Program-made: the position numbers and the translations under genes
Notes under the pieces: generated by a model
Seen by the model: only the letters and a program-made list of their open reading frames with translations
What the model was told of the DNA's origin: nothing
Databases searched by the model: none
In this document: positions 1 through 20,783 of the stretch, piece by piece
Layout of the letters: each line of letters starts with the position of its first letter
Numbering within the stretch: position 1 is the first letter of the stretch
Assembly (NCBI GenBank): GCA_030650425.1
Contig: JAUSED010000012.1
Span: 142,107 to 206,106, forward strand
Length of the DNA stretch: 64,000 bases
Source: Candidatus Omnitrophota bacterium
GTDB taxonomy: Bacteria; Omnitrophota; Gorgyraeia; Gygaellales; Profunditerraquicolaceae
Direction of reading: 5' to 3'

Positions 1-40
1 ACATTAACCCGTTTTTTAAGACTTTAAAAAAGTAAATGAG

Positions 41-81
41 GACATAACTTAGCGAGCCGCAGGTGAAGCTAAGTTATTGTC
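41..81 (+). promoter_or_regulatory. Imperfect hairpin (ataacttagc / gctaagttat, 14-nt loop) in the leader upstream of ccsA. It may be the upstream gene's terminator or an attenuator.
   Basis: Inverted repeat read directly. No T-run follows it. A strong SD (aaaggagg) lies just before ATG 145. Confidence 0.2.
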
Positions 82-144
82 CGAATTTATCCCGAGCCTC
101 AGCCATTTTTTCAAGTAAAAGGCGAGGGATCAACTAAAGGAGGA

Positions 145-918
145 GTGATGAATTCTACATACCTAAATATCGCCTTTGTGATGTATTTTCTGGCGACAGT
201 TTTTTATTGCGTAGGATTATTTTTCCGTAATAAATTCCTGCCGCTTTTGGGGAGAGTTTTTATTCTCTCGGGAGTTCTTAGCCTAACGCTGTATGCAGCT
301 ATGCGTTGGCAGGTCGCCGGAAGGCCGCCTTTAAGCAATATGTTCGAGTCGTTGGTGATCTTTGCCTGGGCAATCGGCTTGGTGCTTCTTTTCATTGATT
401 TAAGATATAAAATTAAAAGTGTTTCCGGCCTGACAGCCTTATTGGGTTTGTTGAGCTTGGGTTACGCCTCGTTTCTGGATAAAGAGTTAACCCCGCTGCT
501 GCCGGCCTTAAAAAGCAACTGGCTGACTATCCATGTATTAACCTGTTTTATCGGATACGCAGGCTTAACCGTGGGGTTTATTGCCAGCGCGGTTATCTTA
601 TTTAAGCAAAAAGAAATTGCTAAATTAGATACAATCGCGCATAAGGTGATTGCCTTTGGATTTTTATTTTTGACCTTGGGGATTATTACCGGCGCGGTTT
701 GGGCGAATTCTGCCTGGGGCACTTATTGGAGCTGGGATCCTAAAGAAACTTGGTCCTTGGTTACCTGGTTTATCTACGCCATCTATCTGCATATCCGTTT
801 TACCAAGGGTTGGAAAGAGCAGAAGGCAGCCTGGTTAGCGGTAATCGGGTTTTTAGCAATGTTATTTACTTATTTTGGGGTTAATTATTTACTATCAGGG
901 TTACATAGTTATGGATAA
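145..918 (+). CDS. ccsA: Cytochrome c biogenesis protein CcsA/ResC, the system II heme-handling membrane protein
   Basis: Polytopic membrane protein with the tryptophan-rich WWD-type motif WGTYWSWDPKETW. Two conserved His-containing loops are present. SD is aaaggagg. Confidence 0.75.
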   Translation: MMNSTYLNIAFVMYFLATVFYCVGLFFRNKFLPLLGRVFILSGVLSLTLYAAMRWQVAGRPPLSNMFESLVIFAWAIGLVLLFIDLRYKIKSVSGLTALLGLLSLGYASFLDKELTPLLPALKSNWLTIHVLTCFIGYAGLTVGFIASAVILFKQKEIAKLDTIAHKVIAFGFLFLTLGIITGAVWANSAWGTYWSWDPKETWSLVTWFIYAIYLHIRFTKGWKEQKAAWLAVIGFLAMLFTYFGVNYLLSGLHSYG

Positions 919-935
919 ATGAAAGGAGAAGTAAG

Positions 936-1589
936 TTGATGAGTAAAAACTTTTTAATCGGGTTATTGGTTTTAGCGGTAAGCCTTATAGCAGGGGATTT
1001 AGCTTTTGCTAAGATTACCGGTTCAGGTCATGATTTTTCATCGCAGGCATGGGAACTCAATCAGGAGATTTGTTTTCCGTGCCATATTCCGCATAATGCT
1101 ATGGCTAACACAGGCCAGGATAGATTGCCATTATGGAACCATGCTTTGACCACAGCCACATTCATCACCTATTCCAGTGATACCTTAGTTGCGGAAGACG
1201 TAGGTCAGCCGAGTTCTTCTTCTAAGGTCTGCTTAAGCTGTCATGATGGAACGGTTGCCCTGAATGCCTTTGGTGGTAGCACTGGGAGTTCTACCTTTGC
1301 GGTTGGGCCTTTAAAAGTCGGCACCGATCTTTCTCATAACCACCCCGTATCTTTTACTTATACTGCCACTTTAGTAAATAAGGACGGAGGCCTTAACGAT
1401 CCTTCAACGTCGGTATCTGCGTTAGGCGGTCAGACTATTGATTCAGGCATGCTTATCAAGGGTAAGGTTGAATGTTCCTCTTGTCATGATGTGCACGCAG
1501 CCAAAGGCAATGCTCAAACTGATAGTAGAAAACTATTGGTGGTAAGTATGGTACAAAGTGAGTTATGCTTAACTTGTCATAAGAAATAA
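936..1589 (+). CDS. Periplasmic tetraheme c-type cytochrome (doubled-CXXCH-like family)
   Basis: Signal peptide. Four CXXCH motifs: CFPCH, CLSCH, CSSCH, CLTCH. Its N-terminal module (CxxCHxPHNA...PLWN...CLSCHDGTVAL...HPVSF) is paralogous to the N-terminus of the ORF at 6483. Confidence 0.8.
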   Translation: MMSKNFLIGLLVLAVSLIAGDLAFAKITGSGHDFSSQAWELNQEICFPCHIPHNAMANTGQDRLPLWNHALTTATFITYSSDTLVAEDVGQPSSSSKVCLSCHDGTVALNAFGGSTGSSTFAVGPLKVGTDLSHNHPVSFTYTATLVNKDGGLNDPSTSVSALGGQTIDSGMLIKGKVECSSCHDVHAAKGNAQTDSRKLLVVSMVQSELCLTCHKK

Positions 1590-1596
1590 AATTAAA

Positions 1597-2658
1597 ATGC
1601 CAAGACTAAGGTTAGTTTATTTAATTCTTTTATTTTGTATTTCCGGCTGCGTAACCGCTTCCAAGATTACGCGGGAAAATATAGGGCCTATTTTTTACCC
1701 ATCTGCGCCTGATGCGCCGCGCATACAGTTTTTAGCCGCCTTTTCGTCTTCAGCTGACTTTGAAGGTTCGCCGAGTACATTTAGGAAATTCATTATCGGT
1801 GATGAGAAGGAGCGAAAGCCGATTGTCAAGCCTTATGGCGTGGCTGTGGATGGTCATAAGATCTATCTGTGTGATACGGTTAACAATACCATCGTTATAT
1901 TAGATTTTAGCGCAAGGAAATTTAGTTATTTTAATCCTAAGGGAAGGCTCCGTTTGCTTGAGCCGATTAATTTAGCCTTTGACGATAGTGGCAATATGTA
2001 TATTGCGGATGCCGGGCTGGGAGAAGTGGTAATTTTTGATAAGGATGGTAATTTTCTGGGGAGTATCGACAGGCAGGGGGAGCTTAAGCCCACCGGTGTT
2101 TTAATTAGCGGCCAAAATATTTATATTTGTGATTTAAAGACGCATTCGGTTAAAGCCTTTGACTTAAAAAGCAGGCAATATTTATTCAGCCTGCCCAGAG
2201 AAAACGCAAGCGAAGAAGCCAATCTTTTTTCTCCGACCAATATCGCCGCTGACGCGGAAGGGAATATTTATGTTTCAGATACCGGAGCATTTAGAGTGCA
2301 GAAATATAGCCCAAGCGGCGAATTCCTGCGCAGTATCGGCGCGCAGGGGGATTCTCTTGGCCGCTTCGCCCGGCCCAAAGGCATAGCGATAGATAAAAAT
2401 GGCAGGATCTATTGCGTTGACGCCGCCTTTGAAAATGTGCAGGTCTTTAACAAGCAGGCAAAGCTGCTTTTTTTCTTTGGAGAGCCGGCAAGCCCTGCAG
2501 CATTGGTTTTACCGGCAGGGATTGCTATAGATTATTCGTTAAAGGAATATTTTACCCCTTTGGCTGATCCGGGGTTTGAAATAGAATACCTTGTTTTAGT
2601 CACCAGCCAATATGGCGATAGAAAATTAAGCGTCTTTGGTTTTGGCCATAAAAAATGA
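1597..2658 (+). CDS. NHL-repeat (six-bladed beta-propeller) lipoprotein
   Basis: Signal peptide ending in a lipobox-like ISGC. Repeated NHL-like blades (IYVxD, IAxD, GxF). It is a paralog of the ORF at 5467, sharing the N-terminal motif P-AP--PRI-F. Confidence 0.65.
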   Translation: MPRLRLVYLILLFCISGCVTASKITRENIGPIFYPSAPDAPRIQFLAAFSSSADFEGSPSTFRKFIIGDEKERKPIVKPYGVAVDGHKIYLCDTVNNTIVILDFSARKFSYFNPKGRLRLLEPINLAFDDSGNMYIADAGLGEVVIFDKDGNFLGSIDRQGELKPTGVLISGQNIYICDLKTHSVKAFDLKSRQYLFSLPRENASEEANLFSPTNIAADAEGNIYVSDTGAFRVQKYSPSGEFLRSIGAQGDSLGRFARPKGIAIDKNGRIYCVDAAFENVQVFNKQAKLLFFFGEPASPAALVLPAGIAIDYSLKEYFTPLADPGFEIEYLVLVTSQYGDRKLSVFGFGHKK

Positions 2659-2710
2659 CAATGAAATTGTCATTGTGAGGCACGAAGTGCCGAATCAATC
2701 TTAAAATATT

Positions 2711-3256
2711 ATGATACGTAGATTATTTGTTTTATTTTTTTTTCTCCACTTTTTAAATGGCTGTAGTATCCAAGCCAAAGATAAATTATTACGCACTTTT
2801 TTTGACGGTGTGCCAGCCCCGGGGAAAGCTTCACCAATAGTTAAAGGAGAACACAAACAAGAGAACCAAGGAGTAAAGACAGAAAAGGTAGTACCGCAGG
2901 CCCCTATTCAATTCATCCATCAGCCTTTCTTAGAAAACCAGTGCGATGTCTGCCATGATACAAAATCTTCCCAGAAGCTGGTTTTAAAGGGTAAAGAATT
3001 ATGTTTTAGCTGTCACGATGATTTTACGAAAGATAAAAAGATAGCGCATTATCCGGTAAGCGAAGGCGCCTGTATTGATTGCCACGATCCGCATCAATCA
3101 GGGAATAAATTTATTTTAAAAGAAGCGCTGCCTAAGATTTGCTTTAATTGTCACGATGAAAAAGAGATAAGGGCAAACGTTGTTCATGAAGGCCAAAATA
3201 TTTGTAATGATTGCCATAATCCGCACGCTTCCAATGAGGAAAAATTACTGAAATGA
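2711..3256 (+). CDS. Pentaheme c-type cytochrome lipoprotein (c3/c7-like)
   Basis: Signal peptide with LNGC lipobox. Five CXXCH motifs: CDVCH, CFSCH, CIDCH, CFNCH, CNDCH. Confidence 0.8.
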   Translation: MIRRLFVLFFFLHFLNGCSIQAKDKLLRTFFDGVPAPGKASPIVKGEHKQENQGVKTEKVVPQAPIQFIHQPFLENQCDVCHDTKSSQKLVLKGKELCFSCHDDFTKDKKIAHYPVSEGACIDCHDPHQSGNKFILKEALPKICFNCHDEKEIRANVVHEGQNICNDCHNPHASNEEKLLK

Positions 3257-3576
3257 GAATCAAAGAAATCTTTCTTATAACTTTTATTCTGTTTTTGCCG
3301 TTAAGTATGATTTTGGCAGAAGGCCTGGACGAAAAAGCCCAGCTGCGCTATCAAGCGATGGAACAGGAGATGGATAAGCTTGCGGCGCGTAGAGATAAGG
3401 CAATGGAGGAAGCGATCAGGCCAAAGATAAGCAAAGATATGGCAGCCAGAGATAACTCGATGGATGAGACGATGGCTAAACTTACGCAAAAAAAGTCAAA
3501 AGAAAGGTTTTTTTTTACCCAAAAACCAAGCCTCTGGCTCTTGAGCCTAAAGCAGAATCCGATAATGCCCCGATAA
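3253..3576 (+). CDS. Small signal-peptide/coiled-coil ORF. It is probably the N-terminal part of the downstream outer-membrane protein gene, separated from it by a homopolymer frameshift.
   Basis: ATGA start/stop overlap with the upstream cytochrome gene. Clear signal peptide. A T9 run at 3508-3516 lies where the downstream ORF's frame is already open from 3480. Confidence 0.4.
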   Translation: MRIKEIFLITFILFLPLSMILAEGLDEKAQLRYQAMEQEMDKLAARRDKAMEEAIRPKISKDMAARDNSMDETMAKLTQKKSKERFFFTQKPSLWLLSLKQNPIMPR

Positions 3577-3632
3577 AGTTTTTCTCTCTGCAAAATACAC
3601 AAAATGCCGTTGAGTTTCGTTTTGAGAATGAA

Positions 3633-5465
3633 ATGGAAAGCAGCAGGACTACGTCTTCAGCAGTACCGTTTGATAGAAACAGATTATTATTTGAAGAACT
3701 GTTGGAGACTGATTTTAAGGGCTCAATCTACCATCCGAACTTTGCGGATATAGATATAAATTTGGAAAACGGTTTCAAGCAGACAAGCGAAAAATTTGAA
3801 CCCACTACAGAGGGTAAACTAAAGAATGGTTTCCTCAACCGTTTTCATATCTTATCCAGATTTTTCCGCCAGAAGCCCTATGCCTTTTCTTTATCCGCGG
3901 ATAGGTCAAGGCAGATCGAGAACCGGGAATTCTTCGAACGCCAGATTGTCGATGCTACTACCTACAGGGGTAGTTTTGGATTGAAGAATAAATTTATTCC
4001 TGCCAGTTTATTTGTGAGCAGTAGTTCCAAGACCATCGATAGGCAGGTAAGCCCGGTGGAGAAGATTGACGATAAACAGCTTAGGCTTAATTTAAGCAAT
4101 CAATCCGCGTTACTCGGAGAAACGCGTTTTGAGGCATCTCAAGATCAATTCTTACGCACAACATCCGACATCCCTGATCAAGAGGGGACAGCGCGCGATT
4201 TTGACCTTTGGAACCAAAAATCATTATCCGAAGATAATAAAAAACTCTTAAATTCCTCGTTACATTTTTATGGCCTTAGCGGAACAAGTAAAAGCAGCGC
4301 CTTCAATTTAAATGAAAACCTGAATATTGACCATACTGATTATTTAAACAGTGCCTACAATTACAATTTTCAGGATCGGACTTCTTCAGGCACAAGGATC
4401 AGGGATCATAAGTTTAACGCGGCTTTAAGGCACAGGTTCTATGAAAGCCTGACCTCTTTATTTAATCCGTATTATTTTAAAAGCGATAGCGCTTCTTTTT
4501 CACGGGAAACCCTTGGGTTTAATCTTGATGAAGATTATGTGAAAAAATTAGGTAAAATCGGAAGATTTAGCTCAGGTTTTGGTTTAAATTACGCGGAAGA
4601 ACAAAGAAAGGCATTCTCAGGCATTATTTCTATTATTGAAGAGCCGCATATCCTTAGGGCCGGCACCACTACATTTCTAGATCAGCCGAATGTGAATACA
4701 GCAACAGTGACTGTGAGAAGCTCAGATAAGCAGACTAAATATAACTTAGGCATTGATTATCAACTTAACAACGTCGGAGAGCGTACACAAATCCAAATAC
4801 TGTTGTCTGAACAGGGCCATACTATTACTGACGGAGCAGAAGTTTTAATTGATTATCAGGCGAGGGTTAGTCCATCCCTTAAATTCAATACCTTAGCTGA
4901 GAACTTTCGCTTACGTATGGATTTTCTTGATAACCTGTTTGGCGTATTCTATCGTTTAAATAAACAAGATCATCCAAGGGTTGTAGGCGATCAGGATAAC
5001 ACCTTGGAGACCCTTAGCGATACGGTTGTAGGCGTGGATTTTCATTTTAAAAACATAGACATCGAATTCGAAAATGAGGATTATGATTCTAATCTTTCTC
5101 CCTATAGGCAGATTAGGCTTAGGGAATCCGTATTTTTCAATCCTACTCCTGCGTCTACGTTAACCTTTCAATCTTCGCAAAGTAAAATTAGGCTGCTGAA
5201 TACGCGGGATACCCAGAAATTCTTTGATTTCATCAGCCGCTATTTTGTTAATTTAACTAGGCATATGCGTTTTAATGCTGAGGCAGGGTTTCGTTGGCAG
5301 GGTGGGGCAGGAGTTAGTTTGAATGATTTGATTGCCTCAGCAGGCTTTGAACTAAATTTAGGTAAATTCCTGATGGATATAAGGTATGATTTTAAGAATC
5401 AGTTAAATTTAGGCGAAAGATTAGTTAACCATTTCATCTTTACCAAGATCAAGCGTAAATTTTAA
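3633..5465 (+). CDS. Putative outer-membrane beta-barrel (porin-like) protein. It has no signal peptide of its own, and its frame is open upstream to 3480.
   Basis: 610 aa, rich in alternating-polarity beta-strand-like segments. The C-terminal residue is Phe (…KIKRKF), typical of OMP beta-barrels. No heme motifs. It is embedded in the cytochrome operon. Confidence 0.4.
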   Translation: MESSRTTSSAVPFDRNRLLFEELLETDFKGSIYHPNFADIDINLENGFKQTSEKFEPTTEGKLKNGFLNRFHILSRFFRQKPYAFSLSADRSRQIENREFFERQIVDATTYRGSFGLKNKFIPASLFVSSSSKTIDRQVSPVEKIDDKQLRLNLSNQSALLGETRFEASQDQFLRTTSDIPDQEGTARDFDLWNQKSLSEDNKKLLNSSLHFYGLSGTSKSSAFNLNENLNIDHTDYLNSAYNYNFQDRTSSGTRIRDHKFNAALRHRFYESLTSLFNPYYFKSDSASFSRETLGFNLDEDYVKKLGKIGRFSSGFGLNYAEEQRKAFSGIISIIEEPHILRAGTTTFLDQPNVNTATVTVRSSDKQTKYNLGIDYQLNNVGERTQIQILLSEQGHTITDGAEVLIDYQARVSPSLKFNTLAENFRLRMDFLDNLFGVFYRLNKQDHPRVVGDQDNTLETLSDTVVGVDFHFKNIDIEFENEDYDSNLSPYRQIRLRESVFFNPTPASTLTFQSSQSKIRLLNTRDTQKFFDFISRYFVNLTRHMRFNAEAGFRWQGGAGVSLNDLIASAGFELNLGKFLMDIRYDFKNQLNLGERLVNHFIFTKIKRKF

Positions 5466-5466
5466 T

Positions 5467-6486
5467 ATGTTTAAACCCAAACTCAAAAATTTATTTATAT
5501 TATTGATTTTCTTTTTTCAGGCTATAAATTGCGCATTTTGCGCTCAAGAAGAAGCTAGGATTGTCTGGCCAGCTGCGCCTTCTAGGCCGCGGATAGCTTT
5601 TGTCAGCTCTATTTATTCAGCGCAGGATCTAGGCATAAAAACAGGTTTTTTCCAGAAATTGAAGGCGATCATTTTTGGTACGCAGAGAGAAATTTTAAAT
5701 AAGCCGATGGCCGTGGCAGTGGATAAGGAGAGGGCAATTTACGTCTGTGACAGCGGGGATGCCTCGGTAAAGATATTTAAGCCGAAAGAAAAACTCTACC
5801 AGAAAATAACCAAGATTAACAATGAAGAGCTGATCTATCCTGTTGGTATAGCGGTAGCGGATGACGGCAGGGTTTTTATCTCTGATTCCACTTTGAAAAA
5901 AGTTTTCTGCTTGGACAAAAAGGCAAGGTATAAATTTACCATTGGCCAAGACAAAAGATTTTTAAGGCCTACAGGCTTAGCTGTGGCTTCCGGAAGGCTG
6001 TATGTTGTAGATACGCAGGCGCATAAGGTCATTATCTTTGATTTAATGGGTAATTTTATCCTAGAATTTGGCGCAAGAGGAAAAGGAGAGGGCGAATTTA
6101 ATTATCCTACCTCCATCGCTATTGATAATGAAAATAAAAGCTATATTGCGGATACAATGAACTGCAGGGCGCAGGTATTTGATAAAAATAACAAATTTTT
6201 ATACAGCTTGGGCCAGGCAGGGAACACCTCCGGTTCATTTAGCCGGCCTAAAGCTGTTGCGCTAGACAGCGAAGGCCATATCTATGTGGCCGATGGAATA
6301 TTTGATAATATTCAGATATTCAGCCAGAAGAGAGAATTCCTACTTTCAGTTGGCGAATCCGGACATAAGGATGGAGAATTTTGGATTCCCTCGGGTATTG
6401 CCATTGATGAGGATAATTATATCTATGTAGCGGATGCTTATAACCAGCGCATTCAAGTTTTTCGCTATATCGGGAGCGGGCAATGA
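5467..6486 (+). CDS. NHL-repeat beta-propeller protein (paralog of the ORF at 1597)
   Basis: Signal peptide and NHL-like repeats (IYVCD, VFISD, LYVVD, YIAD, IYVAD). Its stop overlaps the next start. Confidence 0.65.
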   Translation: MFKPKLKNLFILLIFFFQAINCAFCAQEEARIVWPAAPSRPRIAFVSSIYSAQDLGIKTGFFQKLKAIIFGTQREILNKPMAVAVDKERAIYVCDSGDASVKIFKPKEKLYQKITKINNEELIYPVGIAVADDGRVFISDSTLKKVFCLDKKARYKFTIGQDKRFLRPTGLAVASGRLYVVDTQAHKVIIFDLMGNFILEFGARGKGEGEFNYPTSIAIDNENKSYIADTMNCRAQVFDKNNKFLYSLGQAGNTSGSFSRPKAVALDSEGHIYVADGIFDNIQIFSQKREFLLSVGESGHKDGEFWIPSGIAIDEDNYIYVADAYNQRIQVFRYIGSGQ

Positions 6487-8204
6487 GTAAAGCCATCATC
6501 CATCATCCACTATTCGCTATAAGTTGTAGTCTTATGTTTTTGATTTTATCTTTTACGCCACCTTGCTTTGCCGGCAGTATTGTAAGTTCCAAACACAATC
6601 TTTCCTTAAGCGGGCCGGGAAATGTAAAAGCGTCTTCAGAAAGTGAAATTTGTATCTTCTGCCACACCCCGCATAATGCAAGCACGCAAGCGCCTTTATG
6701 GAACCGCTATGATTCAGGCCAGGTATATATTCCGTATACAAGCACGACCTTAAAAGCCAAAACCGGGCAGCCTACCGGCGCGTCTAAACTTTGCCTGAGC
6801 TGTCATGATGGAACGGTGGCTTTGGGTATGGTGCGTTCACGCAGCCAGCCTATTCAGTTTACCCAAGCTTTGACAGGAGAGGATAACCTTAGCACGGATT
6901 TATCTAATGACCATCCGGTATCGTTTAGATATGATTCCTCGCTTGCCTCTACAAATGGCCAGCTAAAAGATCCTGCTGGATTTAGCGGCTCTATTCGTCT
7001 GGATAAAGATGCTCAACTGCAATGCACAAGCTGTCATGATCCGCACAATGACCAGTTTGGGTCTTTCTTAAGAGTTGATGCTGCGCGGGGATCTTTATGC
7101 CTCACCTGTCACACGATGAACGGCTGGGATGAATCTATACACAAAAATTCAACCGCTTCCTGGAATGGCGCGTCTACCAACCCCTGGAAGCATACAGCGT
7201 GGAATAATGTGGCTGATAACGCCTGTCAGAATTGCCATACCCCCCATAACGCTGGAGGCAAGAAACGTTTATTGAATTATACCAACGAAGAGGATAACTG
7301 CTTATCTTGCCATAATGGAAATGTGGCGCAAAAGAATATACTTTCCGAATTTAATAAAATAAGCACTCATCCTATTTACAATGCTTCTGGTTTGCATGAT
7401 CCAGCGGAAGAGACGATCGTTACCTCCAATAGGCACGTGGAATGCGCGGATTGTCATAATCCTCATGCTGCCTCGGATACTGCTTCCGGTTCTCTTCCGG
7501 GCGCGTTAAGGAAGGTAAGAGGGGTAAACGCGCAAGGATTAGCTGTTGATGAGATTAAGAATGAATATGAACTATGTTTTCGTTGCCACGCGGACAGTAA
7601 TTATACAGGCCGTTTCTATACTAACCGTCAATACCCGGAGAGTAACGTGCGGCTTCAATTTGATCCTTCCAATCAGTCGTATCACCCGATAGAAAATATC
7701 GGCAGGAATGCGAATGTTCCGAGTTTAGTCGCGGGGTTGACAAACTCAAGCATAATCAGATGTATTGATTGTCATAATAACAATGCCAGCCGGGGAAATT
7801 TTGGTGTAGGCCCCGAAGGGCCGCACGGTTCGCTTTATAGCCCGCTCTTAGCGAGGAATTTAATCTTTGGAGATTATCAGGGGGAGAGCCTAAACACTTA
7901 CGCGCTCTGTTATAAATGCCATGATCGGAGCAGTATCTTAGGCAATAAGAGCTTTTCAAAACATAGAAAACATATTGTTGACGCGCATGCCCCTTGTACT
8001 GCCTGCCACGATCCGCATGGTGTAAGAAATACCCCGCATCTGATAAATTTTGACCGTAATATTGTCGGTGCGTATTCTTATGACGATGAAGCAGGAGAAG
8101 GATCTTCTTATACATCCGAGCCTTCTTATCAAAGCAACGGCCCTTTGCACGGGTCGTGCACGCTCACCTGCCATGGTAAAGGGCATAGGGGCAAACGCTA
8201 TTAA
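6483..8204 (+). CDS. Large periplasmic c-type cytochrome with 11-12 hemes
   Basis: Eleven CXXCH motifs plus one possible CX3CH (CTLTCH). The N-terminal module is paralogous to the ORF at 936. Confidence 0.8.
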   Translation: MSKAIIHHPLFAISCSLMFLILSFTPPCFAGSIVSSKHNLSLSGPGNVKASSESEICIFCHTPHNASTQAPLWNRYDSGQVYIPYTSTTLKAKTGQPTGASKLCLSCHDGTVALGMVRSRSQPIQFTQALTGEDNLSTDLSNDHPVSFRYDSSLASTNGQLKDPAGFSGSIRLDKDAQLQCTSCHDPHNDQFGSFLRVDAARGSLCLTCHTMNGWDESIHKNSTASWNGASTNPWKHTAWNNVADNACQNCHTPHNAGGKKRLLNYTNEEDNCLSCHNGNVAQKNILSEFNKISTHPIYNASGLHDPAEETIVTSNRHVECADCHNPHAASDTASGSLPGALRKVRGVNAQGLAVDEIKNEYELCFRCHADSNYTGRFYTNRQYPESNVRLQFDPSNQSYHPIENIGRNANVPSLVAGLTNSSIIRCIDCHNNNASRGNFGVGPEGPHGSLYSPLLARNLIFGDYQGESLNTYALCYKCHDRSSILGNKSFSKHRKHIVDAHAPCTACHDPHGVRNTPHLINFDRNIVGAYSYDDEAGEGSSYTSEPSYQSNGPLHGSCTLTCHGKGHRGKRY

Positions 8205-8260
8205 AAATAATGGGACCGTTTCTATTTTTCCCTAGTAGGGGATACTTTCCAACCTCTGCA

Positions 8261-8347
8261 GAAAGGGACACTTTCCGTCAGGGCTCTAACTAGAACTTCA
8301 AAAGGAAAATGTCCCTTTCTGACGTAAAGGAAAGTGTCCCCTGAGCG
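8261..8347. repeat. Intergenic hairpin element, copy 1. GGGACACTTTCC pairs with GGAAAGTGTCCC, and the 3' arm is duplicated.
   Basis: Read directly. A near-identical element sits at 51958-52059. Confidence 0.5.
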
Positions 8348-8370
8348 AAAAAATAGAACCGTCCCTTTTT

Positions 8371-8892
8371 TTAGATAATAGAAGAGAGTTTCTTATGCAG
8401 CTTTACAATATCTTCTAATTCCTTTTTCTTCAGCAGAGAGTCTATGGTAGTATGTAAATCAAGCCGACGGTGATCAAGATAACCCGCTGTGTGATTAAAT
8501 TCTTTAATCAGCTCACGGGTATCTTTGTTACCGCGTAGGTCTATTCGAAAAGCCGTGTTATTATTTTTAAGATTCTCTAAACCCTGGATAATTTTAGAAA
8601 ATAAGTTGTGGAGATTAAGATAGACGATTAATATAATAACGCAAGCCAAAAAGATACTCCCTAAAATCATCCAGATATTTACCTTGAGCACTATTGGGCT
8701 GATAATTTCCAAGCTTCGATTAAAGCTTACATGGGAACTGAATGCCGCATCCTCAAGCGCCTTTGCCGATAAGATATATATGGCAAATCCCGCGGCGATA
8801 ACTTCTATAAACAAAAACAGGGTAAAACCTAAAATAAAGGTAAGCTGAAAGTTTCCTTTTAGAAGAAATGGTTTTCTTTTTTGGTTACTCAT
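8371..8892 (-). CDS. Small membrane protein: 2 TM helices plus a HAMP-like domain, with no output domain
   Basis: Two hydrophobic helices are followed by a HAMP-like segment (…DTRELIKEFNHTAGYL). It overlaps the upstream cytochrome gene by 4 nt. Confidence 0.5.
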   Translation of the reverse strand: MSNQKRKPFLLKGNFQLTFILGFTLFLFIEVIAAGFAIYILSAKALEDAAFSSHVSFNRSLEIISPIVLKVNIWMILGSIFLACVIILIVYLNLHNLFSKIIQGLENLKNNNTAFRIDLRGNKDTRELIKEFNHTAGYLDHRRLDLHTTIDSLLKKKELEDIVKLHKKLSSII

Positions 8893-9668
8893 TTTTTATG
8901 GCAAGCTAAACAAAGCCTGCTTTTTCGGTTATCCATTACCAGCATATTACGATCTTTGCTATATATATCATGACAGGAGAGGCAGCCGAGCCTCCCGTTA
9001 AAAAGCTGGATTTCTTTCGGCAATAATTCTGAGTTCGTAAAATCTGCTGAGCGCGGATAATCTACGCCGATTGGATGGCTCATTCCGATACCGTGCTGCC
9101 ATAGGCCTTGTTTTACTTCCACCTGCGGGAATTTAGAAATAGTCCCGTCGTGGCAGCTCAAGCACTCAGTGGAAGTCTTATCCAGCATGGAGCCGCCGGT
9201 AGTTTCTAGGAGTTTACCCGCAGGGTGCGCGTACTGTATCACTGTTTGATGCCGCCAAGCCGCATCCTGCTTGGTATTGTCATGGCATAATAAGCAGAAG
9301 GCCTTGCCTTTTACGTGGCCCCAAAGCAGGCCGCTTAGTTCAGCCTTATTTTGGGTTTTATCTTCTTTGTGCACGTCATGACAGGTAGTGCAAGTCATCC
9401 GGCCGCCTTTATCCAGATGCATTGTTAAAGGAATAGCCTTGTTTGGCTTGATATTAATCGGATGAGATTTTTCTCGGTTTATTATATGGCACTTGTAACA
9501 TAGTACGTCAGTCTCGGCAACCAAGAAGGTTAAATCCTGGCTGCTCACATGGCAGATTGCGCATTTGCCTTCAAAGTTATGTACCTTAGAGTTTGAAATT
9601 GCCCAGATCAGGCAAAAGCCAGAAATTAAAAATAGAAAACCGAAGAATAAAATCCTAAACTTCTTCAT
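8889..9668 (-). CDS. Membrane-anchored heptaheme c-type cytochrome
   Basis: N-terminal TM/signal anchor. Seven CXXCH motifs: CAICH, CYKCH, CTTCH, CLLCH, CLSCH x2, CLACH. Confidence 0.8.
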   Translation of the reverse strand: MKKFRILFFGFLFLISGFCLIWAISNSKVHNFEGKCAICHVSSQDLTFLVAETDVLCYKCHIINREKSHPINIKPNKAIPLTMHLDKGGRMTCTTCHDVHKEDKTQNKAELSGLLWGHVKGKAFCLLCHDNTKQDAAWRHQTVIQYAHPAGKLLETTGGSMLDKTSTECLSCHDGTISKFPQVEVKQGLWQHGIGMSHPIGVDYPRSADFTNSELLPKEIQLFNGRLGCLSCHDIYSKDRNMLVMDNRKSRLCLACHKK

Positions 9669-9725
9669 TTAGAAAAACCGTCATTGCGAGGACCCGCCGC
9701 AGGCAGGGCCGAAGCAATCTCTTTC

Positions 9726-10301
9726 CTAATTATAAATATCCTTTATTTTCAGATAAATCTTCTCTAATTCTGTTAATTTAGGATTAAAATCTTCCTCACC
9801 AAGTTTACCTTCTTTTTTTAACGCTTCACAAACATCGATAATTCCCTGCGCTTCAGCCAAAAGGGATTGCGCTTTTATAGAATTTTCTTTTTGGCTCATA
9901 ACTACTTCGGAAAAAGCCTGCGCCAAGCCATGCAGTTGATCATTAGCCCTAAAGGTGATCGGTTCTTTAAGTGATTTTCCCTGGCCAATCTCTTTTAAAT
10001 ACCTTCTAAACCGAAACACCGGTCCGGCAATACTATGCGACCAGAATAAGGCAGCGAATAATGCAATCGTACCTAATGACACTGCTTGAATAAATGTAGT
10101 TACTAAAATTGTGTAGGGGAGAAGGGCTTTAAGCTGGTTAAGGCTGGCAATCCCTTCTAAATAGGTAGGCCCGATATTTTTGTTCAGAAAAATAAGTATG
10201 GTTAAGCCAAAGACCAAGCAGCCGGTTAAAACAATAACCGCGAAGCGAAAAACAAAGGTAACCGTATGTTTTGGTTCTAATATCCCTCTAAATTTACGCA
10301 C
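9726..10301 (-). CDS. Small membrane protein: 2 TM helices plus a HAMP domain, with no output domain
   Basis: TM-loop-TM followed by a canonical HAMP-like sequence (SIAGPVFRFRRYLKEIGQG…NDQLHGLAQAFSEV). It is the first gene of the minus-strand operon. Confidence 0.5.
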   Translation of the reverse strand: MRKFRGILEPKHTVTFVFRFAVIVLTGCLVFGLTILIFLNKNIGPTYLEGIASLNQLKALLPYTILVTTFIQAVSLGTIALFAALFWSHSIAGPVFRFRRYLKEIGQGKSLKEPITFRANDQLHGLAQAFSEVVMSQKENSIKAQSLLAEAQGIIDVCEALKKEGKLGEEDFNPKLTELEKIYLKIKDIYN

Positions 10302-10429
10302 TTTTATATTATATCATAATCTTAGAGAATTAAGGCCTTATTTTATGCAGGAAAAAATATCCTTGCAAATTCAAGAGTTATGTGTTACATTTTATTTGTT
10401 AAAGCCACGGGACAACTCGAAGGAGAGTA

Positions 10430-11866
10430 ATGTTCCAGAAGGAAAAGGTTCACCCACATCATTTTTACCGGAGGAGGCAAAGTACAAGGGTCAGTTTACT
10501 GGCTCTATTTTTTTGCCTTTTACCCGCCTTAATCTTTGCTGCTCCCCTGAAAATCAATAACGACAGCCAATATACCAACTCTACTGCCGTTACTCTCAAC
10601 CTCTCCCTGCAAGATATCCCCAACGGAAACAATGTTTCTCAGATGAGTTTTTCTAACAATAATGCAAGCTGGACAACTCCAGAATCCTATAATTCAACTA
10701 AAAGCTGGAATCTATCTCCGCAGGGAAATGTTACAGGCAATGGAAAGGTTAATATAGGGGACGCTATGTTTATAGCTCAATACCTCGCAGGCAAACGTCA
10801 GTTTACCCCTGAGCAGCTTGCCTTAGCTGATGTTAACCAGAATAACAAGATTGATATTGGGGATTCTATGTTTATTGCCCAATATCTTGCCCGTATAAGA
10901 CCAAGCTTACCTCTTGTCAGCGGCGAGGCCCAACGGACTGTCTATGTAAAATTTAAGGATAAGGCAGGAAACTGGTCAAATGTTTATTCTGATACGATTA
11001 TGTTGGTTCCTCTGCCGCCGACCACTACTTTTTCTAAAGACGAAGGTAGCAATTGGAGAAATACATCGTTAACTTTTGCCCTTACATCTGTTGATTCTTC
11101 GGGCGCAGGGGTAGATAAGATCTATTACTCAATTGATGGCTCAAGTCCTTCAATACTATATACCGGGCCCGTGACCTTTTCGAAAGAAGGGATATACGAT
11201 GTTAAGTTTTATGCCGTAGATAAACTTGGCCAAGCAGAACCGATAAAATCCGCTTTAAAATATGATTATATTATCATAGATAAAACACCTCCGCAGAAGG
11301 GTTCAATAAAAATTAATAATGGCAGCCAACACACTAATTCGCGTTCGGTTGTCTTAGATTTATCCGCCGAAGATTCGCTTACTGGGATGAGCGAAATGCA
11401 AAACTCCAATGAGAACGCTAATTGGGATAATCCTAAGGACTACCGGTCTGGTCCTAGAGACTATGATACTCAAAGGAACTGGAGTTTAACTCTTGGTGAT
11501 GGCGTAAAGACTGTGTATGTTAGATTTAAGGATAGAGTGGGTAACTGGTCAAATCCGGTTTCTGCTACTATAATTCTTGATACGACACCGCCGCAGATTA
11601 CCAGTTTAAATGTTGCTAACGGCTCAACTTTATATGAAAATGATGAGGCCATAATTTCTCCTCAAATTAGTGATCTTAGTTTTTTAGAATACCAATTTAA
11701 TATTGATGGCGTAATAAAACAGGCTTGGTCAGAAAAAAATAATTATAAGTGGGTTCCTGCTTCTCCTGGCAGGCATAACATAAAAGTAGAAGCTAAGGAC
11801 ATTAGCGGCCAAGATAATAAGTGGATGGATGTCTATGTTTTTAGAAAACCCATTGAGCCATTATGA
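10430..11866 (+). CDS. Secreted protein with a dockerin-like Ca-binding repeat pair and two repeated Ig-like/CHB_HEX_C-like domains
   Basis: Signal peptide. Dockerin-like loops NVTGNGKVNIGD and DVNQNNKIDIGD. Two internal repeats of the form VYVKFKD+AGNWSN…PP. ATGA overlap with the Rhs gene. Confidence 0.5.
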   Translation: MFQKEKVHPHHFYRRRQSTRVSLLALFFCLLPALIFAAPLKINNDSQYTNSTAVTLNLSLQDIPNGNNVSQMSFSNNNASWTTPESYNSTKSWNLSPQGNVTGNGKVNIGDAMFIAQYLAGKRQFTPEQLALADVNQNNKIDIGDSMFIAQYLARIRPSLPLVSGEAQRTVYVKFKDKAGNWSNVYSDTIMLVPLPPTTTFSKDEGSNWRNTSLTFALTSVDSSGAGVDKIYYSIDGSSPSILYTGPVTFSKEGIYDVKFYAVDKLGQAEPIKSALKYDYIIIDKTPPQKGSIKINNGSQHTNSRSVVLDLSAEDSLTGMSEMQNSNENANWDNPKDYRSGPRDYDTQRNWSLTLGDGVKTVYVRFKDRVGNWSNPVSATIILDTTPPQITSLNVANGSTLYENDEAIISPQISDLSFLEYQFNIDGVIKQAWSEKNNYKWVPASPGRHNIKVEAKDISGQDNKWMDVYVFRKPIEPL

Positions 11867-14800
11867 AACGGATTCTTTATAAAACTATTTGTATAGCCTT
11901 AGTATCAATCCATATTCTTACTATTTCTCTTCATGATGTAAGTTTTGCAGATTCTTCTGGGACTCAAACAACTATTCAAAGTTCTCCATCTGTTGAATCT
12001 ACCCAACAATCCAGTCAAACAGCGTCTGTTTCTGAACAGCCTCAATCTGAGTCGGGTAATGCAAAAACTAACTATGTGAAACCTACAAGGCTTAATAGCC
12101 CGGAGGAAGGCTCATCAAGTCAGGCTTCAAATTCCTTTGGTTTTAACTTAGGCGCCCTGCGGTCTTTTCAGAGTGATCCCTTTACTGGTAAGGCAACATT
12201 TTCTATTCCTATATCTGTTCCAGCTGGAAGAAATGGCATTCAACCCAATATTACGCTTAATTATTCTTCAGGAGCTGGAAATGGTATCTTAGGCTTAGGT
12301 TGGTCTTTAGAGTTAGGCTCTATTGAGCGCTCAACCAAAAAAGGCGCGCCTAAATATGATTCCACAGATACCTTTGTATTTAACTCCGGAGGCTCAAATT
12401 CAGAATTAGTCAGTATCGGAAACAACGAATATCGCGCTAATCTTGAAGGCGCCTTTATGAAGTTTATCTTTGACGGCTCATACTGGTTAGCAATAGATAA
12501 ATCAGGAACCAAATATTACTTTGGGCAGAATAGCGCTAACCAGATCTTTGACGGCTCGCGGATTTTTAAATGGGCATTGGAAAAGGTTATAGATATTAAT
12601 GACAATTACCTCGTTGTTATCTATTATAAAAACGATAATCAGCTTTACCCCTACAGGATATACTATACTGTTAATGAGAATAAGCCTTTATACCGCACTT
12701 ATAACGAAATATGGTTTAGCTGGGATGATAGAAAGGATGGGGTCTTAAGTTATCGAGCAGGTTTCAGAATATTTACTGGAAAAAAGTTAGATAGTATTTA
12801 TATTTCCTTTGCCCATTTTTATGCCTATGATATCATCCTTGATTTCTCTAATATGGCCGGTAGAGATATATTCACTAAATATTCTTTTGGATATAGTTTT
12901 ACTGATTCGTTTCAAAGCCTGCTTACATCTATTACTCAAATCGGCTCGGATTTGAAGACTTCATTGCCACCGATAACCTTTGACTATCAACGGTCTAATC
13001 CTGGCTGGACATTAGCTAGTGATAAATTTCCCGGTAAAGGAATATTTAGTGGGGTAACCACTGTAGTAGATGTAAATAATGACGGTTTACCGGATATAAC
13101 TGATAAAAATAGTGGCAAGTTTTATTTAGGGAAAAGCGATGGTTCTTGGCAGGAAACTATCGACTGGAGTCATTGGAAGTTACCAAGCACGAATGTAGAT
13201 ACCTTTGTTGATTTAGAAAATTTTCGTTTTGCGGATTTAAACGGTGATGGGTGGGTGGATATTATCTATCATCAACATGGAGATACAAGAGGACCTCAGC
13301 CAGCGTATATCGGTATTAACAATAAGAAAAATGGTTGGGATTATGATGAAGTCTTAAGCAAAAAATTCCCCTGTGATGCATATTTTGTAAATAACCATGA
13401 TTTCCTTAAAGCCTCTGAATCGATGGGTTATGTCTTAGCTGATGTTAATGGAGACAGCCTCGTGGATATAATCAGAGCAAGTCCAAGCGGCCATGAATTT
13501 TATCTTAATTCCGGATCATCAGGATGGATAAGAGACGCTACTTATGATACCCCAACCGAGACTGATTTTACCGACGGCTCTACGCAATTAGGCGATATTA
13601 ATGCTGATGGTCTGTCTGATTTAGTAATTGCTACCAAAAATGGAAACCCCAAGGGGAATATTAAAGAAACATTTCTGAGTACAGGGGCAGGTTGGTTTAG
13701 AGACACTGCTTTACGCCCAAATGAATGGTATATGGATTTCAGTGATAACTCAACTAAATTAGCAGATATAAATAGCGACGGCTTAGTGGACATTGTTCTT
13801 ACAGATAGTGTATTCTTAAATATACGCGGCGACTGGACGATTTGGCGCAAGGATCAAAATTATATGATTCCAGAAGGAAATAATGATTATCCTCCACATC
13901 TAGGAACTAAATTGATAGATACCCAGGGTAAATTTTTACCTGACCTTGTAATAAACCGAATGGAATATGATGGAGGCAGCCATTTGGTAAGCAAAGTTTA
14001 CAGGAATAAAAACAAAATGCCGTCCGACTATCTTACTAAAATCTCTAATGGTATTGGCGGCGAAGTACAAATTACTTATAAACCTTCTACCCAATTTGAT
14101 AATACCGGCGGTGACGATATCTGTGATTTACCTTTTCCTGTTTATGTGGTAGATACAGTTACCAACCACGATACGGTTAACCCAAATAATCCTGACATAA
14201 CCACAAGGTACGAATACAAGGACGGCTTATTTGACTTTAGCGAAAGGGAATTCCGCGGTTTTGGAGATGTTAAGACGATTGACAGCGAAGGAAATTACTC
14301 AGAGAGTTATTTTAAACAAGATTCAATATTTAAAGGAAGGCCTTATAAGCAAGAAGTCAAATATAAAGACGGTAAACTTTATAGCAGGACTGAAAATACT
14401 TGGAAGAGTATACAGCCGTATCTGGGAGTCAACTTCGCATATTTAGAGCGCACAGATAATTATCTTTATGAAGGAGATATAGATTATAAAAAGCGTACAG
14501 GAAGTTCATTTGAATATGATTCCTATGGTAATCCTTCTAAGGTTATTTCAGAAGGAGAGACGGATAAAACCGGCGATGAGAAAACGCAGGTTACTGAATA
14601 TACCTATAATACTCAAGATTGGATTGTATCTACTCCTAAACGCACCTATCTTATAGATCAAAACCAAAATAAAGTTTCAGAGGAATGGTTTTATTATGAT
14701 GATGCAGCTTCAATTGATAGTGCCCCTGTAAAAGGCCTTTTAACCCAAGATGAAGTTTTAATCTTTAACCCTATCACTCAAACTAATTATACTACTGCAA

Positions 14801-17800
14801 CCAAATATTCTTATGATGCCCACGGTAATCTAGTTCAAGTTATTGGTCCTGAAGGGAGGATTACTACTACTGAATACGATTCTTTTTTACAAACCTATCC
14901 TATAAAGCTAACTAATGCTTTAGGACAGAGAATAGAAACGGTTTACTATGGAATAAGCAATTATCCAAACGTAACAGCTGATTCTTTCGAAGGATATGGT
15001 TTATTTGGTCAAGTTAAATACACCAAAGATCCTAATAACCAAAAGACCTATAATGTTTATGATACTTTAGGCCGCTTAACTAAGGTAATCGGGCCGCTTG
15101 ATACAGAGGATTACCCGGGAGTTATTTATGAATACGATTTAACTACTCGGCCCATTAAGATGACCAAGAAAGTCAAGGCTGATTATGCCTCGCCGCCAAA
15201 CTACCTTATAACCTACTCTTTTTATGACGGCTTAGGCAGGCTTATCGAAAGCAAATCTCCTGCTGAAGCTGATCCCCAAACCCGGCAACCTCGCCAGATA
15301 ATCTCTGGAATAAGTAAAATTGATGCAAAAGGCCAGCTTAAGGAAAAGTATTTACCCTATTACCTTTTATCTACAACCTATAACCCTGAAGAATATGTGC
15401 CGCTTACTTTTGATACGCCGTATACTACCTTCAATTACGACTTTCTAGGCAGGTTAACCCAAGCTGCTAACCCCGATCAAACCTCTTCTAAAATTACCTA
15501 CTCAGATTGGTCTAGAACCATAACCGATGAAAACAGCCACTATAAAACCGAATATTACGATGTCTATGGCAGAGTCGTGAAGATAGAGGAGCATAACGGT
15601 AGCCAAACCTACACCACCACTTATGAATATGATGCTCAAGGTAACCTCATCAAAGTTACTGATAATCAAAACAATATCACTCAAATCTGGTATGATTCTT
15701 TAGGTAGAAAAATTAAGATGGATGATCCTGATATGGGTGAGTGGAAATACGAATATGATAAGGCCGGCAACCTCAAGAAACAAACTGATGCCAAAGGGCA
15801 AGAGTTAAGTTTTCAATACGACAGCTTAAACCGTTTAACCACTAAAGAAGGATTTGCAGTTAATTCGGTTAACGCGAGTGATTCAGTTAATGTAGCTAAT
15901 TCAAATAACTATATAGTTGATTTTTACACAAAATTACTCTTGAATTTTGATAGCTTTGAAGACCTTTCTCTTGGCCATAAAAAGCTAAGCCTATATGGTA
16001 ATACTATGGTAGATACCAAACAAGGCAAATCTAATAATACTTCTTTATATTTTGATGGCAAAACAAGCTATTTAACTTTGGAAGATTCTGATGATTGGAG
16101 CTTTGGAAACCAAGATTTTACCATAGATTTCTGGGTGAAGTTTAATGATCTTGAAAAGGCTCAGATGCTTCTAAGCCAAGGCGAAGGATATAATAACAAG
16201 TGGCATATAGTAAAGGATTGGGGCCCCGGCAATAGGCTCTATTTTCTGTTTACCTATGCCCGAACTGTTGAAGTAAGATATTCAATGCTTAAAAACTGGC
16301 CAGTCTCAATAGGGAGGTGGTACCATATTGCTATTGTAAGGACTGGTAAAACCGCGAAGTTATTCATAGATGGCGTCTCCCAAGCGCTTGGCACTTGGGC
16401 TGAATTTGGTGATAATGATGTTGGGAATGTCTCTGCACCTTTATTTATTGGAGGTTTTGATGGAACAAGCAATATGCTTCTTAACGGTTGGATAGATGAT
16501 TTAAGAGTAACCAAAGGCAAAGCGCTTTGGACGTCTGACTTTACTCCTCCTCAAGAAGAGACGGTTCCTCCAGTAGAAGGGACAATACTTCTTGCCACTT
16601 ACGACTACGACGACTTAACCAAGCCCAATTGTATTGGCCGGCTTTCTAAGGTAACAGATCAATCCGGTTCAACTGAATTTTTCTATGATACCTTAGGCAG
16701 GGAGATTAAATCTATAAAGACAGTAGATAATAGTCAGTATGTAGTAGTTAGGGATTATGATACCTTAGGCAGGCTTACTAAGCTTACTTATCCTGATAAC
16801 TCTATTGTTCAATACGAATACAATCCTCAGGGTATTGAAAAGGTTTACGCAAACAACTCAACAAGTTATATTTCAAATATTGACTATTCGCCAACTGGTC
16901 AAATCACTAACATCCAATACGCTAACGGCACAGAAACAAAATATGACTATGACCCAAAGACCCTAAGATTAACTAACCTGGTTACCCAATCCCCATCAGG
17001 AAAAATTCAGGAACTTGAATATAAATTTGACAACGTAGGTAATATTGCTAACCTTACAGATAAAGTTAATACTGCCACGCAATCCTTTATCTATGATGAT
17101 TTAAACCGGTTAACGCAGGCAACGGGGACTTATGTTTCCTTTAGCTATGATTATGATTCGATCGGAAATATGCTCCATAAGGAAGGTATCAGTTTAGTCT
17201 ATGGTAAGAATGGCAGGCTGCCTCATGCGGTAACTCAATACGCAGATAAATTAATAGACTACGATGCCAACGGTAATATGATTTCAAAAGGGCCCTCCTC
17301 AGGAGAAGGAGCTGCTCTTACTTATGATATTGAAAATCGTCTTACTAAAATAGAAGATCAATCACTGAGTCCTGTTTCAGAAGTTAAGAGTGTAACGCTT
17401 ACCTTAAAACCCGGTTGGAATTTCATTTCTTCGCCTTTTATACTTCAGGATCCAAAAATCAGCTCCGTGTTTTCTGCAATTGCCGGTAAATATGATCAGG
17501 TTTCGCGCTATAATCCTGAGACTAAGCAATTTGAGCATTATGTGGGTGACCCTGAATTCAACCAGTTTGATACTTTTGAGTATGGGAGAGGATATCAGAT
17601 ATGTATTACCACTCCAACCAGCCTAACCTTTACTATTACAGGCAGCTTGGCTGAAGGGACTAAATTAATTCCGCTTAAAACCGGCGCAAATTTAGTTTTC
17701 TATCCCAAGACAGTTGAAGCCGAAGTTGAAGCTGCGTTAGCTTCGCTAAAAGTAGGCGTAGACTATTCCAAAGTTTTATATTATGACAAATCTCAAAATA

Positions 17801-20576: not shown

Positions 20577-20783
20577 ATGGAAAAATTACTCACTTTATAT
20601 GAATTGGCGGATTATCTTAAGGTAGATAAGTTTACTATCTACCGTATGGTTTATCGGAAACAGCTGCCTGCGATTAAGGTCGCCAACCAGTGGCGCTTTA
20701 AGGAAAAAGATATAGAGCGCTGGCTGGAAAAGAATAAAAATTACACAATCAAAAGAAAGAAGAGGAGGGCGTTTATATGTTAG
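20577..20783 (+). CDS. Excisionase-type (HTH_17/MerR-like) DNA-binding protein, partner of Fic
   Basis: YELADYLKVDKFTIYRMVYRKQLPAIKVANQWRF motif. Overlaps the fic start. Confidence 0.55.
   Translation: MEKLLTLYELADYLKVDKFTIYRMVYRKQLPAIKVANQWRFKEKDIERWLEKNKNYTIKRKKRRAFIC

Follow-up and report, generated by a model that had tools for sequence, protein, structure and literature searches.

In haloarchaeal phototaxis, sensory rhodopsin II (SRII), a retinal protein with seven transmembrane (TM) helices, is encoded beside a separate transducer, HtrII, which has two TM helices (2TM), a HAMP domain and a full methyl-accepting chemotaxis protein (MCP) signalling domain and forms a homodimer. The chemoreceptors or sensors DcrA of Desulfovibrio and GSU0582/GSU0935 of Geobacter carry c-type heme, and redox sensing has been proposed for them; each of them unites, in a single polypeptide, a PAS-like domain that holds one heme and a complete output, MCP or other. 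Af1503 of Archaeoglobus fulgidus, the output-less receptor from which the first HAMP structure was obtained, possesses an extracytoplasmic domain of considerable size and stops directly behind HAMP. The uet cluster of Ca. Tenderia electrophaga encodes the tetraheme UetA, the barrel UetC, the NHL proteins UetH/I, the undecaheme UetJ and CcsA, together with the peptidyl-prolyl isomerase (PPIase) UetB, the triheme c7 cytochromes UetDEG and the cupredoxin UetF; the uetA-J list includes neither heptaheme nor 2TM-HAMP genes (bioRxiv 10.1101/2022.05.06.490989; PMC10734462). Here, a 64,000-nucleotide (nt) stretch from a Candidatus Omnitrophota bacterium (assembly GCA_030650425.1, contig JAUSED010000012.1, positions 142,107–206,106; hereafter the window) was analyzed, in which a heptaheme cytochrome c gene is bracketed by two paralogous genes for 2TM-HAMP proteins that have no output domain. 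The three genes, termed A, B and C, are located as follows.

9726–10301, minus strand: gene A, 191 amino acids (aa), GTG start; 2TM, HAMP and a C-terminal helical hairpin, without an output domain.
8889–9668, minus strand: gene B, 259 aa; heptaheme cytochrome c with 7 CxxCH motifs.
8371–8892, minus strand: gene C, 173 aa; 2TM and a degenerate HAMP, a distant paralogue of A.

A and B are separated by 57 nt (9669–9725), and B and C share an ATGA overlap of 4 nt (8889–8892). An earlier note on this DNA had described three minus-strand open reading frames (ORFs) with this gap and overlap, and its coordinates match exactly; the seven hemes that it assigned to B were also counted here as 7 CxxCH motifs. 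Its 2TM layout for the flanking proteins was reproduced by hydropathy, which located two hydrophobic spans in A (residues 21–39 and 65–83, with an intervening loop of 25 aa) and two in C (residues 20–38 and 73–91, with a loop of 34 aa). Identical proteins are on record as Q7K98_07940 and Q7K98_07930. A description of the trio was not found in the available literature, including the published descriptions of Uet/OmcE-type clusters. Similar to SRII/HtrII, the trio places a cofactor-bearing protein beside separate 2TM-HAMP proteins, whereas no output domain is attached to these and two paralogues flank the cofactor protein; B is moreover a periplasmic multiheme cytochrome, for which no TM–TM interface is evident. 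Coupling of a periplasmic c-type heme via TM helices and HAMP to the cytoplasm, as proposed below for the trio, is shared with DcrA and GSU0582/GSU0935, whereas the heme protein of the trio is separate and heptaheme. A and C resemble Af1503 in being membrane proteins with HAMP and neither kinase nor MCP output, but differ from it in their short loops (25–34 aa), a helical tail of 35–55 aa, their occurrence as a paralogous pair and their tie to a cytochrome gene.

The CxxCH motifs of B are positioned at residues 36, 57, 93, 125, 169, 229 and 253, and the protein matched the Pfam family Paired_CXXCH_1 with an expectation value (E) of 2.6e-15. An alignment of 20 B homologues, with identities as low as 33%, showed all seven CxxCH motifs and H30, H69, H100, H140, H148, H192 and H198 to be invariant. 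All seven hemes are probably bis-His-ligated, as judged from this alignment, and with seven such hemes B looks like an electron wire. Residues 122–259 (hemes 4–7) were collinear with residues 43–217 of a tetraheme cytochrome encoded in the window (E = 1e-11, four CxxCH aligned), and the B-family profile matched 9yuq_N (3e-11) and 7TFS (5.5e-8). By these sequence matches, B begins with an N-terminal hydrophobic helix, continues with a triheme module and closes with a tetraheme module that is OmcE-like (122–259); the last resembles the OmcE filament subunit (7TFS), to which B adds the helix and the triheme part. The helix comprises 19 contiguous apolar residues (6–24, Kyte–Doolittle value 2.58), and in the B orthologues associated with A and C the first heme motif follows 8–15 residues past it. 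It is a probable signal-anchor, so that the membrane anchoring of B claimed in the earlier note is likely; since small residues at −3/−1 after the helix are common (88 of 93 homologues), cleavage of B as a signal peptide may occur instead. Such an anchor is known for the quinol dehydrogenase cytochromes NapC/NirT/CymA/NrfH and Geobacter ImcH, the last being described with seven hemes. They share with B a single N-terminal helix, a first heme close by and a place where a multiheme pathway meets the inner membrane, but they need no HAMP partners. B gave no match to NapC/NirT (PF03264) at E ≤ 1, has no identifiable quinone-site residues, and matched NrfH at E = 4e-4 only, over 31 C-terminal residues.

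The assignment of HAMP to A and C was examined with PF00672, of which the gathering threshold is 25 bits. A of the window scored 13.2 bits (E = 0.11), below this threshold, while C of the window gave zero Pfam matches and only weak NCBIfam matches, to the TM2–HAMP stretch of the kinases NblS and BaeS. Because the window copies were sub-threshold, the question was settled with family profiles. PF00672 was matched by 23 of 54 diverse A-type relatives (best E = 2.3e-8) and by 9 of 24 C-type relatives (best E = 3e-9). The A-family profile, built from 31 proteins, matched the TM2–HAMP region of PcaY (E = 8e-4) and HtrII (E = 6e-3), and the C-family profile, built from 24 proteins, matched TM2–HAMP structures of PcaY (6e-8), Tsr (1e-7), HtrII (2e-5; precisely 1.7e-5) and NarQ (2e-4), together with weak matches in the Protein Data Bank (PDB) to Af1503–EnvZ chimeras (E about 0.01–0.07). 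The TM2–HAMP1 region of HtrII is hence among the best solved-structure matches of both profiles. These comparisons indicate that A and C carry a genuine HAMP at the family level: the HMM (hidden Markov model) check suggested in the earlier note fails for the two window copies and succeeds for the relatives and family profiles of both flanking proteins.

A structure of A was modeled with AlphaFold2 (AF2) at a predicted local distance difference test score (pLDDT) of 76. The model is composed of helix 10–42, a continuous TM2–AS1 helix (47–106), a non-helical connector (107–123), helix 124–163 beginning with AS2, and helix 169–190. A Foldseek search of this monomer against the PDB gave nothing significant, with Aer2 poly-HAMP and CpxA at E = 2.5–5, an all-helical monomer being an uninformative query. 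The layout expected of HAMP, namely helix AS1, a non-helical connector of ~14 residues and helix AS2, with a Pro early in AS1, a connector Gly and an acidic AS2 start, was recovered in A. Y47, G93, P94, R118 and D121 are invariant and R97 nearly invariant in the A family, and the residues canonical for HAMP persist from phylum to phylum (P94, the Gly of the connector, and R118-x-x-D121, which opens AS2). The conservation was highest in AS1 (0.59) and dropped to 0.25–0.28 in the C-terminal helices. C of the window has lost the AS1 Pro, for which its HAMP is regarded as degenerate. Within the C family, conservation peaks (0.56) in a cytoplasmic juxtamembrane motif, KRRxYxIKxxFQ (residues 5–18 of the window protein), of which R6 is nearly invariant and Q16 invariant and to which A has no equally strong counterpart. 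An aromatic-x-S-H motif was also identified in the periplasmic loop of the C family.

No similarity between A and C was detected by pairwise BLASTP; their relation is visible only between profiles. Alignment of the two families with hhalign gave a probability of 99.6% and E = 7.8e-24 over 157 columns, spanning the N-terminal juxtamembrane segment, TM1, loop, TM2 and HAMP. By this profile evidence, A and C are distant, anciently diverged paralogues of each other. An exhaustive HMMER search with the A profile, which covered 1.84 billion cluster representatives (50% identity clusters), detected 252 proteins at E ≤ 1e-10 and 2476 at E ≤ 1e-3. The best 150 relatives are short, mostly 170–210 aa with none over 281 aa, and no output domain was found among them. 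Since the whole family is short, the state without an output domain is, on these sequences, native to the family, and the idea of a truncated pseudogene or receptor remnant was ruled out. The absence of kinase, MCP and GGDEF output from A and C that was claimed in the earlier note is in line with this result and with negative Pfam and NCBIfam scans. Where family members are named in NCBI/JGI annotation, they are called "methyl-accepting chemotaxis protein"; this identity was rejected, as PF00015 is not found in A, C or their relatives and the signalling domain is absent. Identity as a sensor histidine kinase was similarly rejected, as neither HisKA/DHp nor HATPase_c was found with Pfam and NCBIfam; the NCBIfam kinase matches of A and C are confined to the TM2–HAMP stretch, and the alignments of both families contain no conserved His after HAMP.

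The A-B-C order on one strand was found in 24 loci across phyla, often with 4-nt overlaps, and contig ends interrupt four further loci, which gave a positive answer to the survey of HAMP-only and cytochrome genes that the earlier note had proposed. The carriers, almost all of which are metagenome-assembled genomes (MAGs), belong to Omnitrophota (the window and L092; L numbers denote individual loci), Nitrospirota, Desulfobacterota/"Deltaproteobacteria", Aminicenantaceae (Aminicenantes), Burkholderiales/Rhodoferax, Gammaproteobacteria and Magnetococcales; the trio is thus spread over at least five bacterial phyla. HMMs constructed from close Omnitrophota-clade relatives alone already find A- and C-type ORFs beside B orthologues in distant genomes, and the C-type proteins of L021, L023, L025, L026, L030 and L033, which lie outside the training alignment, were found at E = 5.5e-6 to 1.9e-13. 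The trio adjoins or sits inside a cluster of barrel, NHL, undecaheme and OmcE-like genes in 17 of the 23 scored loci. It follows undecaheme-containing genes on the same strand in L008, L011, L017 and L082, and is placed mid-operon among structural genes in L013 and L091. In L090 (GCA_023268315.1, 8417–10515) the trio stands alone: within 9 kb of it neither another cytochrome gene nor an OmcE-like or NHL gene is present, and the genes around it include those for methionine sulfoxide reductase, two YaaA-type peroxide-stress proteins and a dCache-HAMP protein. Four loci have the trio accompanied by other cytochromes only (L007, L016, L019 and L020), in L007 by one small cytochrome. C is followed by a fourth gene in several loci from Nitrospirota and Desulfobulbaceae, which encodes a cytochrome of ~135–140 aa that resembles the C-terminal part of B:

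L007, 8406–8822: small cytochrome after C.
L016, 3736–4158: small cytochrome after C.
L019, 7385–7792: small cytochrome after C.
L020, 7403–7825: small cytochrome after C.

B-like paralogues of 5–7 hemes without flanking A or C were found in L027, L029 and L034 (Phycisphaeraceae and Desulfobacterales MAGs), around positions 5800–8600, where they are convergent to 11-heme, NHL-sized and barrel-sized genes. They have lower profile scores and tend to classical AXA signal peptides. Because such paralogues occur in the same cluster type without A and C, these gene contents suggest that A and C are a modulatory add-on to B and no universal requirement. A Nitrospirae MAG (L009, 7001–8690) has one 2TM-HAMP gene only, located 287 nt downstream of the heptaheme gene. 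Its product scores with both the A profile (45 bits) and the C profile (35 bits), and may therefore represent an undiverged, homodimeric state of the pair.

In addition to the A/C paralogy, the account of the trio in the earlier note had missed a larger cluster for extracellular electron transfer on the plus strand (145–8204), which is convergent to the trio. Its genes, and the spacer and upstream site that flank the trio, are as follows.

145–918, plus strand: CcsA-type cytochrome c assembly protein (PF01578, E = 5.6e-51).
936–1589, plus strand: 217-aa tetraheme cytochrome, a full-length OmcE subunit homologue (phmmer against 7TFS_A, E = 2e-21, residues 8–217; against 9yuq_N, 5e-17).
1597–2658, plus strand: NHL-repeat beta-propeller, 353 aa (PF01436, 1.4e-19).
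2711–3256, plus strand: 181-aa pentaheme cytochrome with a possible lipoprotein signal (5 CxxCH; Paired_CXXCH_1, 3.8e-30).
3253–5465, plus strand: putative outer-membrane barrel, split into pieces of 107 aa (3253–3576, signal peptide) and 610 aa (3633–5465, other frame).
5467–6486, plus strand: NHL-repeat beta-propeller, 339 aa (PF01436 NHL, E = 3.6e-35), syntenic with the trio.
6483–8204, plus strand: 573-aa undecaheme cytochrome (11 CxxCH and one CxxxCH), UetJ-like by description.
8205–8372, no strand: nested imperfect palindrome of ~165 nt, which fills the spacer where the undecaheme gene and gene C converge.
10340–10369, minus strand: promoter-like site (TTGCAA-17-TAAAAT, 9/12 matches), ~39 nt upstream of the GTG of A; weak evidence.

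Compared by description, the composition of this cluster is that of the published uet cluster, i.e., a tetraheme cytochrome, a putative barrel, two NHL propellers, an undecaheme cytochrome and CcsA, to which the window adds the heptaheme and the 2TM-HAMP pair; PPIase and cupredoxin genes were not seen in window positions 1–10400. The undecaheme cytochrome is syntenic with the trio in 13 loci. Its N-terminus is OmcE-like (7TFS at E = 3.7e-28 over residues 15–211, the first four hemes), and its twelfth, atypical motif is CTLTCH at residue 559. The product of 3253–5465 gave zero Pfam matches and is a putative barrel on account of its size, position, C-terminal Phe and analogy to UetC (bioRxiv 10.1101/2022.05.06.490989). 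In L001, a single ORF of 726 aa spans both barrel pieces (N-terminal piece, E = 2e-12) where the window has a stop, and in L004 the gene is split in the same manner (103 + 616 aa); a frameshift or pseudogene is one possible reason for the split, and an assembly error and programmed frameshifting are others.

The spacer palindrome contains three nested inverted-repeat pairs, with an RNA folding energy of −79 kcal/mol (z = −9). In the window, 7 copies of the core 12-mer, GGGACACTTTCC, were counted against 0.09 expected, four of them in the 8205–8372 spacer and three in a spacer near 52 kb (51969–52052). Probably, the palindrome serves as a bidirectional terminator or belongs to repeated elements of the repetitive extragenic palindrome (REP) or miniature inverted-repeat transposable element (MITE) kind, perhaps both. 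The number of promoter-like sites in the region was not above chance, and a hairpin between A and B was no better than shuffled sequences (z = −1.07).

Divergent from A, positions 10430–19371 encode a dockerin/PKD/Ig-like surface protein of 478 aa and another protein, of 2502 aa, that is RHS/YD-repeat toxin-like by eye. Farther on (20777–40328), a Fic protein, a Hdr/MvhD-like iron-sulfur/flavin gene set (21699–28382), a pair of REC and PilS-like kinase genes, and Thi4 were observed. A nuo (complex I) gene set starts from 30907, with subunit families confirmed to 35236, and because of this set a membrane quinone pool is likely in the organism. The kinase and REC genes of the window form two groups.

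28395–30114: first group; REC at 28395 and PilS-like kinase at 28801.
55343–61570: second group; REC-AraC at 55343, Cache-HAMP kinase at 56143 and REC-GAF-PAS kinase at 58493.

The earlier note had speculated that the trio signals to such orphan kinases and REC proteins. These genes exist, yet none is conserved beside the trio across loci, and the idea was dropped since no neighbour recurs.

We tentatively prefer to read A and C as a heterodimeric transducer or gate that retains B at the inner membrane and through which the redox state of B is coupled to the cytoplasm, which we regard as quite possible, if not yet probable. This reading builds on the gene architecture, HAMP homology, paralogy, heme ligation pattern and synteny computed here. 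The fixed one-strand A-B-C order points to a stoichiometric complex, and we infer a physical, 1:1:1 assembly of A, B and C in the cytoplasmic membrane, which would be an add-on to a Uet/OmcE-type extracellular electron transfer pathway. A and C would probably form one asymmetric heterodimer with four TM helices and one four-helix HAMP bundle; binding of one asymmetric partner commonly arises once a homodimeric ancestor has been duplicated. This unit would bind a single B via the short periplasmic loops and TM helices, and B would be the redox-active subunit, of which the OmcE-like module could dock to its OmcE-like counterparts among the cluster's cytochromes. The state of B might be read through the loops (invariant Y47 of A; aromatic-x-S-H of C) and passed via TM2 to HAMP, such that its redox or occupancy state alters the conformation of TM2 and HAMP, as SRII does to HtrII. 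The direction and nature of the signal are likewise conjectural: it could leave through protein contacts of the membrane-proximal cytoplasmic face or of the C-terminal hairpin, or alternatively feed back on B as a gate. It is more doubtful whether the trio represents a new class of split redox receptor, in which B acts as an "antenna" whose redox state is read by two HAMP-only transducers paired as an obligate heterodimer. B would then equilibrate with a periplasmic or extracellular electron-transfer chain, and its state would be reported across the membrane, or electron flow gated, without a classical output domain.

Retention of the HAMP residues, the highest conservation in AS1, the dispensability of A and C in related clusters and the occurrence of the trio alone in some genomes lead us, with reserve, to favour the transducer reading. 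Several observations weigh against it. A and C have no output domain, and conservation in A is lowest in the C-terminal helices, where an output surface would most obviously lie. Seven bis-His hemes are typical of electron wires, and known c-heme sensors have one or two hemes. The trio is placed in the middle of a structural operon in L013 and L091. The N-terminal helix of B is poorly conserved with indels (20 homologues), which argues against a specific TM–TM signalling interface. No conserved cytoplasmic partner, such as a kinase or REC protein, recurs beside the trio across the examined neighbourhoods: REC and kinase genes (a set like that of the window) were found in L001, a PAS kinase and a sigma-54 regulator in L091, Crp in L092, REC-GGDEF-EAL in L007, molybdopterin genes in L004 and nitrogen genes in L006. 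The AF2 model of B, based on the 20-sequence alignment, was also poor (pLDDT 63, predicted template modelling score 0.47) and its Foldseek search against the PDB gave nothing (best E = 3.7), for which no fold was assigned to B. Of the redox-sensing membrane complex proposed in the earlier note, HAMP and co-conservation hold, and such a complex is still plausible; its seven bis-His hemes, however, have the look of a wire more than of a sensor, and the trio is mid-operon in two loci.

The wire-like character of B is also the starting point of the main competing explanation, which we consider possible but doubtful, namely that A and C are non-signalling and dock B as the inner-membrane terminus of the cytochrome chain, for structure or electron coupling. 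Four TM helices together with the B helix and heme 1 may then form an exchange site with quinone or a membrane complex, and the HAMP bundle would be a mere stable dimerisation scaffold from a receptor ancestor. A seven-heme bis-His B with an OmcE-like module would suit this role, as would the position of the trio as the only inner-membrane-associated element of the cluster, its co-operonic arrangement with structural genes in L008, L011, L013, L017, L082 and L091, the variable C-terminal tail without a conserved signalling partner, and the quinone-linked Nuo complex encoded in the same window. However, the TM helices of A and C contain neither conserved His pairs nor quinone-site motifs in the family alignments, PF03264 is not matched by B, and B-like paralogues manage in the same cluster type without A and C. 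The HAMP-specific residues are, moreover, conserved beyond the needs of a plain coiled coil, and we know of no purely structural role of HAMP. Another link of porin-cytochrome clusters to the cytoplasmic membrane has been proposed for the conserved but uncharacterised PCC3/PCC4 inner-membrane proteins of Fe(II) oxidisers, which are encoded in such clusters and have five TM helices and b-heme-like WX3HX13H motifs (PMC5566968). As A and C have two TM helices, HAMP and no WX3HX13H motifs, the analogy to these 5-TM proteins with HX13H motifs was ruled out.

An assembly role appears unlikely. A and C, with B as a primer or base, would help to mature, position or polymerise OmcE-like cytochromes at the inner membrane, and would parallel, by role and not by sequence, the accessory proteins reported for OmcS nanowires (osc cluster; summarised in PMC13194489). 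The cluster does have an OmcE homologue and two further proteins with OmcE-like modules, a CcsA gene at its edge, and NHL propellers like proposed nanowire accessory proteins (PMC13194489; bioRxiv 10.1101/2022.05.06.490989); but A and C have no chaperone, ATPase or protease domain and no homology to any known assembly factor (Pfam, NCBIfam), and OmcE-like and NHL genes are absent within 9 kb of the L090 trio. It is highly improbable that A and C flank the cytochrome by chance, as unrelated small membrane ORFs or as remnants of truncated receptors. Sub-threshold Pfam scores of the window copies and the negative BLASTP comparison of A and C are what this view can draw on; against it stand the 252 cluster representatives of similar short length at E ≤ 1e-10, the A/C profile alignment (E = 7.8e-24) and the gene order, of which the recurrence in 24 independent loci effectively excludes chance juxtaposition.

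The trio thus appears to be undescribed: HAMP, multiheme cytochromes c and Uet/OmcE-type clusters are of known kinds, and what is new is a conserved HAMP-only paralogue pair bracketing a heptaheme cytochrome. Iron oxidation, electrode uptake and mineral respiration have been proposed to run through Uet/OmcE-type clusters, mostly in uncultured bacteria, and the trio is the sole inner-membrane-associated element that travels with such clusters in many lineages, with no fewer than 252 sequence clusters at 50% identity. Were it a sensor or gate, these electron conduits would carry their own redox feedback; as the membrane terminus, it would supply the inner-membrane step that is missing. Should the split-receptor idea be true, the trio would be a cytochrome counterpart of the rhodopsin–transducer pair and a built-in sensor in many conduits of at least five phyla. 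For HAMP biology, this large natural family of output-less HAMP proteins, with a paralogous pair, offers a useful test case for HAMP acting alone.

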